Counted from the first letter of the stretch, positions 35,621-44,082 are shown. The stretch: 48,123 bases of DNA from Coxiellaceae bacterium (GCA_014238325.1 JABABH010000231.1:1-48123); one strand, 5' to 3'. Numbers and translations: made by a program. The notes: generated by a model from the letters alone, not told the origin.

Positions 35621-35802
35621 ATACCGCTCGCGAATGAAGATGCGAAGTGGGTTATTGTGAGCGGTATACCTTTGTTTGGCTGGCGAAAAATAAATGTTCA
35701 CTCAGCCACTTCAAAAAAAATCGCGGTTTTCCCCTTAAGCATCCCCATCGCGATGAGTCACTTCAAGTGCATGCTTCGCATCTTGAAGTGGCATGGGTAT
35801 AC
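35621..35802 (+). repeat. Structured ~185-bp repeat, copy A (MITE/REP-like)
   Basis: ATACCGCTCGCGAATGAAGATGCGAAG...CTTCGCATCTTGAAGTGGCATGGGTATA. Aligns with copies at 41051..41237 (same orientation) and 40193..40355 and 43897..44082 (reverse). Confidence 0.9.
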
Positions 35803-35905
35803 CCATGCCCCCAGGGAAAAGGTGATTCCATTTGATCAAAAAATATGCTTAAATAAAAGGCAGCATGACCAACCGATCATCGCATAGCATAATAAAATTG
35901 GAGCA

Positions 35906-37192
35906 TTGAGGGCCGTGAAGTACGCACACAACTTGAACAAATCATTAACTTCCTCTGGCACAGCTGCAACGATACCAAACCACCCTAAGAGATATAGCCC
36001 GTACCCAAGCAAAGAAACTTTGTTACAGCACAAAAACAACGTTACCTCTTACCCATCACCTCCTGATCAGAAAAACGACATCATCGCAGCTATGAGACAA
36101 AGCGAATTAAACCATAGAAACCATCTACTTTTTTTGTCTGGTTCGTACAGCTTGCCAGCTCATTGTTCTACAAATAACCTAGGCCACCCCTCCTATCAAA
36201 GGCTACTAAGCCCTCTATACCCCATGAATCCTTCACACCACGTAGTCCTCCGCCCAAACCATCCATTACCTGCTCACCATCAAAAACAAGCGCCCTATAT
36301 TTATAGGCCGATCCAATCCTCCCGCTCTTCATATAACGCAACTACCCCCCCCTACACAACGAGCGCCACTATTAATAATAGAGATATCAATTCGCTATAT
36401 ATTAAAAATATGACTGCGATATTGGCCTCTTTCTTTCGGGTATCACCCCCTGTTCTTCCAAATGAAAGAAAGAAAATAAAAAATTTTTTCTTCGTTACGG
36501 AAAAGCAATTCAATGGCGTGGAAAAAACACCCTACCAGCATATTCTCGATGCAGGATTGAGCAATAAAAACATCTTGGACCTTTTTGGTTTTGCCAACTA
36601 TCAAATCCAAAATTTTTATATATTCAAACGAAAAGTAAATTCTTTTATGGATCATTTTATAGCGAGCACTCCCTCTACTCGCTCAACCTATGATTTCGCA
36701 AAACAAGTGCTGGAGGACTTCCCTTTTGATGGAGAGCAATCGACCCAATTAATTATAGATGCCATAACCCTACCAACAAGAAGATTTTTTGTGAAAAACA
36801 CGATCCTGGTATTTAATTTTTTTTCTCATCTACATAAACACCCGGAAGCCCGAAAAGAACTGAAGATAGGTCACTATACTTCCCTAAAGCGGCCTAACCC
36901 AGAGCCCCCCTCCACCCAATCATCGCAGGATACGGAAGCACCTTATAGGGCTTATCAACCTCCAGCAAAGTATATTATCTCAAAAAAAACTTGCCCTGAT
37001 CCATGTCCTGGTGTATCTTCTTCCTCCGAGAGTTTTAATCAGAGAGAGCAAAGCTTAGACGACATAGCCTTCCTCCGTTCCTCCTCTAGCAATACTCATT
37101 TCTTTCACGGAGCTAGTGACCAGCATCAAGATAATACGAATTCAGACGTCATTCCATACAAATCGGTACCGATATGGCGCCCATATTTATGA
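35906..37192 (+). CDS. Orphan protein 1 of a local paralogous family (low-complexity N- and C-terminal regions, one shared module)
   Basis: 428-aa ORF. Shared module at about aa 186-316 (NFFFVTEKQFNGVEKTPYQHILDAGLSNKNILDLFGF...NFFSHLHKHP). Start is uncertain (TTG 35906, GTG 35915, ATG 36092). No similarity to any family I recognise. Confidence 0.55.
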   Translation: MRAVKYAHNLNKSLTSSGTAATIPNHPKRYSPYPSKETLLQHKNNVTSYPSPPDQKNDIIAAMRQSELNHRNHLLFLSGSYSLPAHCSTNNLGHPSYQRLLSPLYPMNPSHHVVLRPNHPLPAHHQKQAPYIYRPIQSSRSSYNATTPPYTTSATINNRDINSLYIKNMTAILASFFRVSPPVLPNERKKIKNFFFVTEKQFNGVEKTPYQHILDAGLSNKNILDLFGFANYQIQNFYIFKRKVNSFMDHFIASTPSTRSTYDFAKQVLEDFPFDGEQSTQLIIDAITLPTRRFFVKNTILVFNFFSHLHKHPEARKELKIGHYTSLKRPNPEPPSTQSSQDTEAPYRAYQPPAKYIISKKTCPDPCPGVSSSSESFNQREQSLDDIAFLRSSSSNTHFFHGASDQHQDNTNSDVIPYKSVPIWRPYL

Positions 37193-37234
37193 GCTCTTCT
37201 ACTACTTATATACAAATCGAGCACGCTATAAATT

Positions 37235-41237: not shown

Positions 41238-43661
41238 TTATATATCAAGATTCTCAACCGAGAGTGCATTTTTCTCAATAAATTCACGCCTAGGTTCTAC
41301 TTGATCTCCCATTAATGTGGTAAACATTTCATCTGCTCTCGGCACATCTTCAATTTTCACATGCAATAATCGGCGCTTTTGAGGGTCCATAGTTGTTTCT
41401 CGCAATTGATCCGGGTTCATTTCTCCCAATCCTTTGTAGCGCTGAATATTGACCCCTCGTTTTGCTTCTTGCATCAGCCACTCCAGGGCTTCACCAAAAT
41501 GATGAATTGACAATCGCTTGTCTGAACGTTCCACATAAGCTCCCGGCTGAATGACACCGGAAAGTTTTTGGTATAAAGTGATAATTTGTTTATAATCGGC
41601 GCTTGCAAAAAAACTTTGATTGAAATAATAAGTATTTTCAACACCATATTTTAAGACATGCACTACGGGTAAAAAAATCTGATGCTCTTCATCATGATGC
41701 ATCTCAACGCGATATCGTATATCTAATTGAGATGACTGTTTTTGAAGATGCTCTATTAAGCAGTCTACCCACACTTTAACCTTCTCTCTTTGACTGAGTT
41801 CTTCAGTCAGTAGTGGAGGTAAATATTGCAATTCTCGGACAATATCCATCAAATATCGACGGCCCAAGCGCGCCAACGATCGCATGGTCAAGCGAAATTG
41901 ATCCGTTAAATCGGCAAGCTGCCCTTCACTCATCGGCGGTGATGTCTCCGAGGGGTATAATCGCGCCCCTTCCAATGCCCAGGCTAATAAAAGTGCCTCT
42001 AAAGCAGGATCATCTTTTACATATTGCTCCCGTTTATGTTTTTTGAGTTTATAGAGTGGCGGCTGTGCAATATAAATATGGCCTCGTTCAATTAATTCTG
42101 GCATTTGTCGATAGAAAAAAGTAAGCAATAGGGTACGAATATGAGCACCGTCTACATCCGCATCAGTCATAATAATAATACGATGATAGCGCAGTTTATC
42201 AGGATCATAATCTTGTCCAACGCCACACCCTAAAACCATAATCAAGGTGCCAATCTCCTCTGAAGTTAGCATCTTAGAAAAGGCGACCTTTTCGATATTG
42301 AGAATCTTTCCCTTCAAAGCTAAAATGGCTTGAGACAAGCTATCTCTCGCTGAGGCTGCAGAGCCTGCTGCTGACTGACCTTCTAATAAAAAAATTTCAC
42401 GTTTTTCAGGAATTTTACCTCGACAATCCTTGAACTTCCCTATCAGGGAGCTATTGATTTCAGGAGCATTTGATCGCCGGTTAATCTCACGTGCTTTTTG
42501 AGCTGCTTCACGTACATTCGCCGCTTTGAGTATTTTTTCCGTAATCGAACGCGCTTCTTTAGGGTTTTCTAAAAGATACTCGTTAAATTTTTCAATCACA
42601 GAAGACTCAACGACAGGCCTCACTTCAGAAGAAACCAATTTATCTTTGGTTTGTGACGAGAATTTGGGGTCAGCAAGCTTAATCGAAAGCACAGCGGTAA
42701 GGCCTTCTCGACAATCTTCTCCTGTGATGGCAAGTTTATCTTTTTTCAAAAGATTCAATTCGTGCATATACTGATGGATGATACGAGTCAACCCAGAGCG
42801 AAAGCCCGACAAATGCGTGCCTCCATCACGTTGAGGAATATTATTCGTAAAACAACAAATGTTTTCTTGAAAACCACCATTCCATTGGATTGCTAATTCA
42901 ATCGTAATATTATTCTTCGAAACTTGAAAATAAAAAATTTTAGTGTTGACGAGTAACTGATGGTTTTTATTTAAGTACTCAACAAAGGCTTGGACACCAC
43001 CTTGATATTCAAAAAAATCGTGCTGCCCCGATCGTTCGTCCCTCAGTTCAATACGCGCACCTGCATTTAAAAAAGAGAGTTCTCGTAATCGTTTTTCCAA
43101 AATACCATAACTGAGTTCAGATTCTCCAAAGACTTTAGGACAGGGTTTAAATCGAATTTCTGTACCGGTACTATCAGCGCTCCCAATGACAGTTAAAGGC
43201 GCCTGAGGCACCCCCATTTTATAAGTCTGACGGTACAGCTGACCATCCTTTTGAATGGTCACTACTAATTCTTCAGACAACGCATTGACAACCGAGACAC
43301 CTACGCCATGCAAGCCGCCCGAGATTTGATAAGCATCTTGATCAAATTTTCCACCAGCATGCAACACCGTCATGATCACTTCTACAGCAGATCGACCCTC
43401 TTCAGGATGAATATCGATAGGAATGCCCCGACCATCATCACGCACCGTAACAGCACCATCAGCATGCATGGTCACCCAAATATGAGTAGCAAATCCAGCC
43501 AGTACCTCATCGATAGAGTTATCAACGACCTCAAATACCATATGATGCAAACCCGATCCATCACTGGTATCCCCAATATACATACCCGGGCGCTTTCGTA
43601 CTGGATCTAATCCCTTCAGAATTTGAATCGAAGAAGAATCATACAGATTTCCTTCACTCAT
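41238..43661 (-). CDS. gyrB: DNA gyrase subunit B
   Basis: 807 aa. N-terminus YDSSSIQILKGLDPVRKRPGMYIGDT...HHMVFEVVDNSIDE, Toprim region (EIFLLEGQSAAGSA...IMTDADVDGAHI), C-terminal RYKGLGEMNPDQL. Confidence 0.97.
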   Translation of the reverse strand: MSEGNLYDSSSIQILKGLDPVRKRPGMYIGDTSDGSGLHHMVFEVVDNSIDEVLAGFATHIWVTMHADGAVTVRDDGRGIPIDIHPEEGRSAVEVIMTVLHAGGKFDQDAYQISGGLHGVGVSVVNALSEELVVTIQKDGQLYRQTYKMGVPQAPLTVIGSADSTGTEIRFKPCPKVFGESELSYGILEKRLRELSFLNAGARIELRDERSGQHDFFEYQGGVQAFVEYLNKNHQLLVNTKIFYFQVSKNNITIELAIQWNGGFQENICCFTNNIPQRDGGTHLSGFRSGLTRIIHQYMHELNLLKKDKLAITGEDCREGLTAVLSIKLADPKFSSQTKDKLVSSEVRPVVESSVIEKFNEYLLENPKEARSITEKILKAANVREAAQKAREINRRSNAPEINSSLIGKFKDCRGKIPEKREIFLLEGQSAAGSAASARDSLSQAILALKGKILNIEKVAFSKMLTSEEIGTLIMVLGCGVGQDYDPDKLRYHRIIIMTDADVDGAHIRTLLLTFFYRQMPELIERGHIYIAQPPLYKLKKHKREQYVKDDPALEALLLAWALEGARLYPSETSPPMSEGQLADLTDQFRLTMRSLARLGRRYLMDIVRELQYLPPLLTEELSQREKVKVWVDCLIEHLQKQSSQLDIRYRVEMHHDEEHQIFLPVVHVLKYGVENTYYFNQSFFASADYKQIITLYQKLSGVIQPGAYVERSDKRLSIHHFGEALEWLMQEAKRGVNIQRYKGLGEMNPDQLRETTMDPQKRRLLHVKIEDVPRADEMFTTLMGDQVEPRREFIEKNALSVENLDI

Positions 43662-43896
43662 AAAGATACTCCTATAATCAGCTATTGCATTTTAGCTGAC
43701 TGATTAAAAATCGAAAAAATGGGCGATCACATAAGCGAGTTCACTTATCATGATATCTCCGGCCATCAGCAGGATAGGTGTTTGAGGCACGCTTTCACAT
43801 GTCTGCCAATAAGCACTTATTTAATTATGTAAAACTTTCGAGTCACTTAGCTTCATTGCCCATACCACTATGTCAACAGTCCCGTAAAAAATGAGA

Positions 43897-44082
43897 TATA
43901 CCCATGCCACTTCAAGATGCGCAGCATGCACTTGAAGTGACTCATCGCGATGGGGATGCTTAAGGGGAAAACCGCGATTTTTCTTTGAAGTGGCTGAGCG
44001 AACATTTATTTTTCGCCAGCCATCAAAACAAAGGTATACCGCTCGCCATCACCCACTTCGCATCTTCAGTCGCGAGCGGTAT
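43897..44082 (-). repeat. Structured repeat, copy D (reverse orientation)
   Basis: TATACCCATGCCACTTCAAGATGCGCAGCATGCAC...CTTCGCATCTTCAGTCGCGAGCGGTAT. Its reverse complement aligns full-length with copies A and C. Confidence 0.9.

Follow-up and report, generated by a model that had tools for sequence, protein, structure and literature searches.

On a 48,123-nt metagenomic contig from a Coxiellaceae bacterium (GCA_014238325.1 JABABH010000231.1:1-48123; hereafter the window), a repeat of about 185 bp occurs in four copies, all inside an 8.5-kb segment; the remaining 40 kb contain none. In the reading that we favour, and to which we give a probability of roughly 0.55, the copies form a previously undescribed family of small, non-coding, palindromic elements of the miniature inverted-repeat transposable element (MITE) type, which spread locally in an uncultured, deep-branching, Coxiellales-like host and served as, or marked, recombination junctions. 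The host is placed in this way because no public sequence exceeds 64% identity to its GyrB, with Coxiella burnetii, tick Coxiella endosymbionts and 'Paracoxiella' as the best matches. The most informative property of the repeat, missed by a sequence-only reading that had described it, is its location: every copy sits at a synteny breakpoint, and each segment between copies is an intact gene module.

The copies, which we call A (35620-35802, + strand), B (40192-40356, -), C (41050-41237, +) and D (43897-44083, -), alternate in orientation (+ - + -). With copy A as query, blastn returned four full-length matches in the window and nothing else of consequence (35621-35802, +; 44082-43897, -, 94%; 41051-41237, +, 87%; 40355-40192, -, 73% with gaps), with E-values of 1e-28 to 1e-93 across the four; the boundaries shift by 1 nt once the terminal T/A is counted in. 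The arms returned by a repeat search of the window agree (for example, C and D over 172 nt with 90% complementarity, and the 3' halves of A and D, which pair over 89 nt at 98%), and a profile hidden Markov model built from the four copies recovered only A, B, C and D from the 48 kb (nhmmer --max). The copies are 165-189 bp long and 80-96% identical in pairwise comparison, and informative sites, most of them in a central quasi-palindrome, join A with D and B with C into two subfamilies. Copy B is the most diverged and has a 20-nt internal deletion, a 4-nt block is absent from A and B, and the first base of A is G, not T. No open reading frame (ORF) is open or conserved across all copies: indels of 1, 4 and 20 nt shift the frame, the stops differ, and ten spurious ORFs translated from the copies have no exact match in the protein collection. 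A candidate degenerate remnant at 47760-47790, with motifs CTTCGCACCTT and GCGAAGTGGG, was rejected, its local alignment being no better than those of shuffled sequences.

The copies are bounded by TATACC...GGGTATA and carry imperfect terminal inverted repeats (TIRs) of 27-28 nt. Both termini read TATACC-N11/12-AAGATGCGAAG, and 17 of the 28 TIR positions match, in two blocks of which AAGATGCGAAG is the inner one. The spacer had been given as N11; this is true of A, but B and C have N12, and there is one mismatch in D. Allowing one mismatch, AAGATGCGAAG occurs 11 times in the window, 8 of them inside the copies (1.0 expected), while all 7 matches to TATACCGCTCGCGA at up to two mismatches fall inside copies (0.19 expected). 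Facing outward from both termini are weak -35/-10-like hexamers (TTCGCA-17/18-TATAnn), for example in the 3' TIR of copy C (41209-41237, +), which reads CTTCGCATCTT-N12-GGTATA and holds TTCGCA-18-TATATT. Between the termini, each copy has three or four local hairpins: a terminal 12-bp hairpin (H1), H2, the central quasi-palindrome and H3. In copy C, H1 occupies 41050-41098 (+; arms TATACCGCTCGC and GCGAGCGGTATA, 25-nt loop), H2 41111-41142 (+; TGGCTGGCGAA...TTCGCTCAGCCA) and the central palindrome 41143-41174 (+; CTTAAGGGGAAAA-CCGCGA-TTTTCCCCTTAAG). The H1 loop of this copy contains the inner TIR block AAGATG(C/T)GAAG, and a T-rich tail comes after the hairpin; in all four copies H1 has a predicted energy of about -20 kcal/mol and is followed by the U-rich tail CCUUUGUUUUG. 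The 5' stem, previously put at 11 bp, reaches a perfect 12 bp in C and D; in A and B it is limited to 9-10 bp with an additional G-T pair. The perfect 13-bp-stem palindrome ascribed to copy C is indeed there, with a variant in B; long-range complementarity was also claimed for the repeat, and the 10-bp pairing of GCCACTTCAA with TTGAAGTGGC is present in A and D only.

A MITE-type element is the best fit to this anatomy because the copies are small and intergenic, have imperfect TIRs and TATA termini, contain no conserved ORF, and are not accompanied by a transposase in the 48 kb. Their length and lack of coding capacity fall within the range for MITEs (about 50-500 bp, non-coding), and TIRs are present. 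Published accounts of prokaryotic MITEs (PMC10969869) likewise describe small elements with TIRs that are intergenic, close to gene ends, and stably folded. No transposase or recombinase domain was found among the window ORFs of at least 110 aa with a Pfam match, and for every such ORF the earlier statement that no transposase is associated stands; seven large ORFs without a Pfam match, in addition to three ORFans described below, belong to the polysaccharide cluster.

The genomic context of the copies adds to this picture. The window starts with the end of dnaA, dnaN and recF (47-2917), followed by an ankyrin protein, transporters and a ~25-kb polysaccharide/heptose cluster that ends in hldE, two epimerases and tal. 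After tal come copy A, three ORFan genes (E1, E2 and E3), copy B, gmhA, copy C, gyrB in reverse orientation, copy D, glyQ and glyS, and finally usp. To the left of A, tal (34863-35606, +; transaldolase/fructose-6-phosphate aldolase family) is the last gene of a conserved heptose/lipopolysaccharide (LPS) block: the order methyltransferase, epimerase, UDP-glucose dehydrogenase, GFO oxidoreductase, hldE, two epimerases, tal, which occupies 27350-35606 in the window, is the same in GCA_964373645.1 (GmhA 72% identical) and in C. burnetii. In those two genomes tal is separated from gmhA by only 9 and 3 nt, respectively, and gmhB comes next. In the window, the tal stop is 4854 nt away from the gmhA start (13 nt, then A, E1-E3 and B, then 104 nt), and gmhA (40461-41045, +; SIS-domain sedoheptulose-7-phosphate isomerase), the module between B and C, is cut off from both tal and gmhB, the latter being absent after gmhA, where copy C starts 4 nt past the stop. 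Relative to the two other genomes, A, its cargo and B are inserted: the segment, 4.7 kb long with its three ORFan genes, reads by comparison of gene order as an insertion that split the ancestral tal|gmhA junction. The dnaA-dnaN-recF-gyrB block is kept in three relatives, two of which have dsbA-glyQ-glyS ~8-10 kb downstream on the same strand. In the window, gyrB (41238-43661, -) forms the module between C and D, 38 kb from recF, detached from dnaA-dnaN-recF and inverted relative to glyQS. The repeats bound these rearranged modules, and nhmmer did not find the repeat in the relatives' loci (~105 kb in all).

At the level of individual genes, the 5' edge of copy A is 14 nt past the tal stop and its 3' edge 103 nt upstream of E1. 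Copy C makes up the entire gap between the convergent gmhA (stop 41045) and gyrB (stop codon 41238-41240), 4 nt from the first stop and 0 nt from the second. For these two copies the claim that every copy has a stop codon within a few nucleotides of one of its ends is borne out; it fails for B, which is 118 nt from the nearest stop, that of E3, and has its 5' end facing gmhA with the ATG 104 nt away, and for D, flanked by the divergent starts of gyrB (43661) and glyQ (44142). At third codon positions, the GC skew of the + strand (GC3 skew) is below zero for nearly every gene, irrespective of orientation. Since the values for gyrB (-0.23) and for E1-E3 (-0.22 to -0.29) match the present orientation of these genes, the rearrangements are not recent, an age that agrees with the 4-20% divergence among the copies. 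A recent inversion of gyrB between C and D, which we considered given that gyrB and glyQS are co-oriented in the relatives, was rejected because the skew of gyrB fits its present strand.

A history that would produce this arrangement starts with a transposase, encoded elsewhere in the genome, that would have acted on the inverted ends and placed copies into TA-rich sites beside gene ends; the source insertion sequence (IS) would have ends matching TATACCGCTCGCGAATGAAGATGCGAAG. Most of the spread would have been over short distances, which would have left two sister pairs, A/D and B/C, inside 8.5 kb, and after insertion the copies would have evolved as DNA hairpins. The inverted pairs would then have moved the genes they enclose in composite units flanked by MITEs, or have provided substrates for homologous recombination, and either recombination between inverted copies or movement of a composite unit could have led to the displaced and inverted gyrB. 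More tentatively, the copies probably act as 3'-end barriers or non-canonical terminator-like elements, since H1 and its U-rich tail directly follow the tal and gmhA stops and copy C is the sole spacer between convergent genes. The outward hexamers, to judge from their sequence, may contribute weak promoters toward E1, gmhA, gyrB and glyQ.

Several results weigh against this history. No further copy was present in the public collections searched, and the genome-wide count could be as low as four: exact patterns gave only chance matches in coding sequences, and no copy of the element, in GTDB species genomes (ATACCGCTCGCGANTGAAGATG), and only such chance matches in JGI metagenomes (TACCGCTCGCGANTGAAGATG), among them a Micavibrio-like repeat protein in both collections and an IS110-family transposase ORF; two pattern scans of IMG/VR and a 'distant' blastn search of plasmids and phages returned no match. 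There is no variable target-site duplication, as no direct repeat of at least 3 nt occurs at consistent boundaries. The sole candidate for a duplication is TA (TA|TACC...GGTA|TA in B, C and D, with GA to the left of A), which is indistinguishable from the conserved TATA ends. A single-copy empty site was not found either; the only comparison of this kind, tal|gmhA, covers A-cargo-B as a whole, and here an extra 104 nt lie outside B, such that the outer boundaries differ from the repeat ends. The relatives used for synteny are distant (GyrB 62-64%, GmhA 70-72% identity), so that intergenic repeats and breakpoints should coincide in some cases. In addition, the rearrangements are old by GC3 skew and so provide no timing link to the repeats. 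With respect to the terminator role, a simple scan for canonical intrinsic terminators was negative within the copies. The original proposal of a non-autonomous element of MITE or REP type is the one that fits the evidence best, yet it does so lacking a variable target-site duplication, a cognate IS and a simple empty site.

An alternative that shares much of this evidence is that the repeats are functional boundary sites of modular mobile units, and not free-standing MITEs. A-E1E2E3-B and C-gyrB-D would then be cassettes with inverted ends of ~185 bp whose 5' termini point outward, and a transposase or recombinase would move or flip whole units. The alternating orientation of the copies and the discrete, intact module in every inter-copy segment are as this alternative predicts, and both units have the same polarity, with their TATACCGCTCGC ends outward. 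Breaks lie 0-14 nt from stop codons on three sides, A-to-B interrupts a tal|gmhA junction that is contiguous in two relatives, gyrB has left its conserved recF-gyrB context for a position between C and D, and co-moving gene blocks flanked by MITEs are documented (PMC10969869). We nevertheless consider it unlikely, if worth keeping in mind. An alternating orientation has a prior chance of 1/8; no recombinase or transposase was found in the window; scans of the copies for dif/Xer sites, integration host factor (IHF) sites and GTAG motifs were empty; the units are not flanked by a duplication; and 104 nt of non-repeat DNA separate B from gmhA. A simple insertion of C-gyrB-D into the heptose operon also fails, as glyQ and not gmhB is found downstream of D, and an essential single-copy gene would be odd cargo. 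Rather unlikely, in our view, is the fuller version of this idea, in which a Coxiellales bacterium of the intracellular type would shuffle gene modules and the repeats would be the sites that bound them, with inverted pairs capturing whole genes and relocating or flipping them to the base pair at stop codons, a cargo of lineage-specific ORFan (effector-like) genes and even the essential gyrB, and a transposase or recombinase encoded elsewhere.

Returning to the MITE-type family, predicted folding provides information on the level at which its structure operates. Whichever strand is taken, every copy folds far better than its dinucleotide shuffles (z -2.3 to -5.8), a comparison that the sequence-only reading had asked for; minimum free energies range from -57 to -76 kcal/mol. 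The background, from 30 control windows of 185 nt taken every 1.5 kb of the contig, has a mean z of -0.5 (sd 1.3); a single control window, at z = -4.1, may be another structured or palindromic site of the contig. RNAalifold recovered the hairpins at alignment columns 1-12/38-49 (H1), 62-72/82-93 (H2) and 143-156/164-179 (H3). The covariation check that had been proposed alongside came out negative: the RNAalifold covariation term is +1.31 (positive values being penalising) and only 1 of 39 pairs is compensatory. Because the strands are symmetric, indels are tolerated and covariation is lacking, these data indicate palindromy at the DNA level and not a strand-specific RNA.

The central hairpin offers a more direct view. 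In A and D its sequence is CTTCAAAGAAAAA-TCGCGG-TTTTCCCCTTAAG, with an imperfect 5' arm, compared to CTTAAGGGGAAAA-CCGCGA-TTTTCCCCTTAAG in C; the A/D loop is the reverse complement of the C loop, and when the A/D loop and 3' arm are reverse-complemented and put in place of the 5' arm and loop, the C form is obtained at 32 of 32 nt. An intramolecular template switch during replication homogenises the arms of inverted repeats and inverts the spacer (PMC8604942, PMC8794818). From the alignment, the difference between the A/D and B/C forms is best described as one such template switch, which would have perfected the central stem and flipped the loop. Because the switch predicts the C form exactly, seven apparent 'compensatory' differences amount to one mutational event, and no selection on RNA structure is needed. 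Since B and C share the derived state, they are sister copies. The repeats are thus inverted-repeat-rich DNA that forms hairpins in vivo: a signature of this kind, as far as a comparison of copies can tell, shows the hairpin forming at the DNA level. As a clean natural example of template switching, the central hairpin bears on how 'compensatory' stem changes in repeat families are read.

The same data bear on the suggestion, made from the start as an alternative, that the copies are a structured RNA family. According to this explanation they would be selected cis-acting RNAs (bidirectional terminators, mRNA 3'-end stabilisers or a small RNA (sRNA) family), and their number would reflect function and not mobility. 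Very stable predicted folding in all copies, the position of H1 and its U-rich tail immediately after the tal and gmhA stops, and copy C as the sole sequence between convergent gmhA and gyrB are all compatible with such a role. Two G-U pairs form on the + strand of the element only, one compensatory change (A-T to C-G) affects the central stem of copy B, and sRNAs derived from MITEs exist in C. burnetii (PMC5896051). The orientation of the copies is inconsistent, however: A and C are sense to tal and gmhA, B is antisense to E3, C is also antisense to gyrB, and D lies in a divergent promoter region. Moreover, both strands fold equally well, the covariation term is penalising with its single compensatory pair, a 20-nt deletion and a 4-nt indel are tolerated, and the one template switch explains the stem-perfecting changes without selection. 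Rfam, searched with the whole window for a described family, gave no match at gathering thresholds and, at E<10, only scattered sub-threshold chance matches, none common to the four copies; a tRNA/tmRNA scan of the window was empty, and the terminator scan described above adds nothing in support. We regard an RNA family as quite unlikely.

A relationship to REP/BIME-like sequences spread by a REP-associated tyrosine transposase (RAYT, of the IS200/IS605 Y1 type), or to a PATE-type derivative of IS200/IS605 that inserts 3' of a short target, would explain why hairpins lie at or close to the two ends, why the copies are downstream of genes and why no clear target-site duplication is seen. It would also give meaning to the 5' flank (T)GATGA or ATGA at three of the four copies (A, C and D); in A and C, though, this flank overlaps TGA stop codons, which could explain the ATGA. 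IS200/IS605 ends carry similar hairpins on one strand. Here, the two end hairpins are unrelated in sequence, and true inverted terminal blocks, which the IS200/IS605 class lacks, are present; neither a GTAG or CTAC core where one is expected nor, in the window, a Y1 transposase was found, and the 165-189-bp copies are far larger than REP. We therefore judge this origin to be very unlikely.

Finally, an assembly artefact or chance similarity, conceivable in a metagenomic contig since mis-joins can create repeats, is refuted by E-values of 1e-28 to 1e-93, by copies that have diverged (80-96% identity) and are not identical, and by two independent assemblies from other samples with the same sequence and order through A, B and C and into D. 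These assemblies were identified via the exact GmhA protein, which is also encoded on scaffold_1229 of ENA ERZ23487945 and scaffold_11203 of ERZ23487774. The first corresponds to window 30474-43977 and the second to 37512-41164, both at ~100% identity, and as sister-sample contigs with A, B and C in the same order they exclude an artefact of assembly. The first scaffold breaks off at 43977 within copy D, in a stretch with 98% identity between A and D, and the second in the central palindrome of C at 41164. Ends of this type agree with repeats and prove nothing more, but they fit branching of the assembly graph at repeats and possibly point to further copies or alternative arrangements in the population. 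Exact look-ups of the GlyQ, GlyS, DnaN and RecF proteins returned no record, and that of Usp led to a 1.2-kb contig that ends inside the window.

The cargo between A and B (35906-40074, +) consists of E1 (35906-37192, +; 428 aa), E2 (37235-38065, +; 276 aa) and E3 (38191-40074, +; 627 aa). The three proteins are Pro/Ser-rich, distant paralogues with a common domain of ~160 aa (19-32% identity) that is present twice in E3. They have no Pfam match, and neither a word-indexed profile search nor an exhaustive HMMER search of 1.84 billion representatives found homologues other than the proteins themselves; they may be lineage-specific, effector-like proteins. A role of the cargo as mobilisation proteins was discarded, given the absence of Pfam matches and homologues, and an AlphaFold model with a pLDDT of 47 is too poor for a fold search. 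Internal DNA repeats occur in E2 and E3 (tandem 39-mers at 37862-37939; 39011-39083 versus 39833-39902).

A number of other features of the contig deserve mention. A perfect 20-nt palindrome, GGCATGGGTA|TACCCATGCC at 35790-35809, is centred on the 3' junction of copy A, such that the 8 nt directly outside mirror the terminal 8 nt; this is not seen at the other copies, and could have been left by a second, inverted end or by an event mediated by a hairpin. The 104 nt between B and the gmhA start (40357-40460) have no counterpart in the relatives and contain a perfect TTGACA at 40398-40403; they may be a promoter region that the orphaned gmhA has newly acquired. The ~38 kb between recF and gyrB hold the ankyrin gene, the transporters and the ~25-kb cluster, which is syntenic with the C. 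burnetii LPS region, and rsmD...ftsYEX-rpoH-dsbA, located between gyrB and glyQ in the relatives, is absent from the contig. The ankyrin-repeat gene (3203-3754, +) has a GC3 skew of +0.30, compared to -0.04 to -0.42 for all other genes of the contig, which suggests that it was recently acquired or inverted. The strand of dnaA-dnaN-recF is C-rich along the contig, with a GC skew of ~-0.05 to -0.29 and no sign change; either there is no origin or terminus on the contig, or dnaA is on a lagging-type strand, or the lineage has an unusual polarity. In C. burnetii, a copy of IS1111 (IS110 family) is present just downstream of gyrB (6553-8150 of the locus), and a QMITE2/REP palindrome lies ~260-370 bp past the end of the IS1111 transposase ORF; the gyrB 3' flank thus holds unrelated repeats in both lineages.

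If our preferred explanation is true, the repeats represent a new MITE-like family in the Coxiellales, an order whose MITEs (QMITE1 and QMITE2) have already been linked to the birth of sRNAs, to IS targeting and to the mobilisation of virulence loci. At one breakpoint the family is associated with three genes without a homologue among 1.84 billion representatives, and at another with the displacement of gyrB from a near-universal block. This is an incremental finding on genome plasticity in an uncultured lineage and not a new mechanism; in kind it is ordinary.

The closest known system is QMITE2 (CbsR16/QMITE2) of C. burnetii, whose copies measure 150-190 bp, have TIRs of 23-29 nt and occur mainly in 3' untranslated and intergenic regions, where they abut stop codons or overlap them by a few bp (Wachter et al. 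2018, PMC5896051). They fold very stably and flank gene blocks such as icm/dot (PMC5896051, PMC10969869). Our element resembles QMITE2 in bacterial order, size, TIR length, location at gene ends and stable predicted folding. However, the four-copy profile has no match (nhmmer) in 37 kb of C. burnetii DNA that includes the small QMITE2/REP copy downstream of IS1111. QMITE2 carries a GTAG REP palindrome targeted by IS1111, and no copy of the present element has such a core; it also lacks variable direct repeats of 7-11 bp, and there is no IS1111/IS110 element in or near the copies. Judged by its sequence, the element is not a member of QMITE2, and it differs from QMITE1 in having no IHF site.

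Correia elements (CREE/NEMIS) of Neisseria are short and non-coding, have TIRs of ~26 nt with TATA at the start, and insert at TA; their TIR consensus is TATAG(C/T)GGATTAAC..., and they have a central IHF site and a TA duplication. They also have outward promoter elements, give rise to hairpin transcripts that are processed, and are often located beside genes (PMC10969869). Our copies share the small non-coding format, TIR length, TATA start, outward promoter-like elements and position beside genes. The present TIR departs from the Correia consensus after TATA, the IHF motif WATCAANNNNTTR is lacking, and there are several internal hairpins instead of one TIR panhandle.

REP/BIME and ERIC sequences of enterobacteria are extragenic palindromes found downstream of genes in either orientation, which affect mRNA 3' ends and are recombination substrates; REP itself is an imperfect palindrome of 20-40 nt with a GTAG-type head and a RAYT partner. 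ERIC is among the elements described in PMC10969869. The likeness to our element consists in extragenic palindromes by gene ends in either orientation, and does not extend to sequence, Rfam and BLAST having given no matches; relative to REP/BIME, the present copies are long (165-189 bp), have no GTAG and are without a RAYT in the window.

In pdif modules, pairs of short inverted repeats delimit the modules, neighbours share boundary sites in alternating orientation, and each boundary is a 28-bp XerC-spacer-XerD site. No 28-mer in our copies matches the dif consensus at 17 or more of 28 positions, and the best window matches (17-18/28) are outside the copies. MITE-flanked composite units are exemplified by Acinetobacter integrons bracketed by identical MITEs (PMC10969869); for the units described here, no flanking duplication was found. 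The present cargo differs from both systems in that it includes a housekeeping gene, and mobility is putative here. What the A-B and C-D units have in common with composite units and pdif modules is their architecture, with inverted pairs of a short repeat delimiting discrete gene modules at alternating, shared boundaries.

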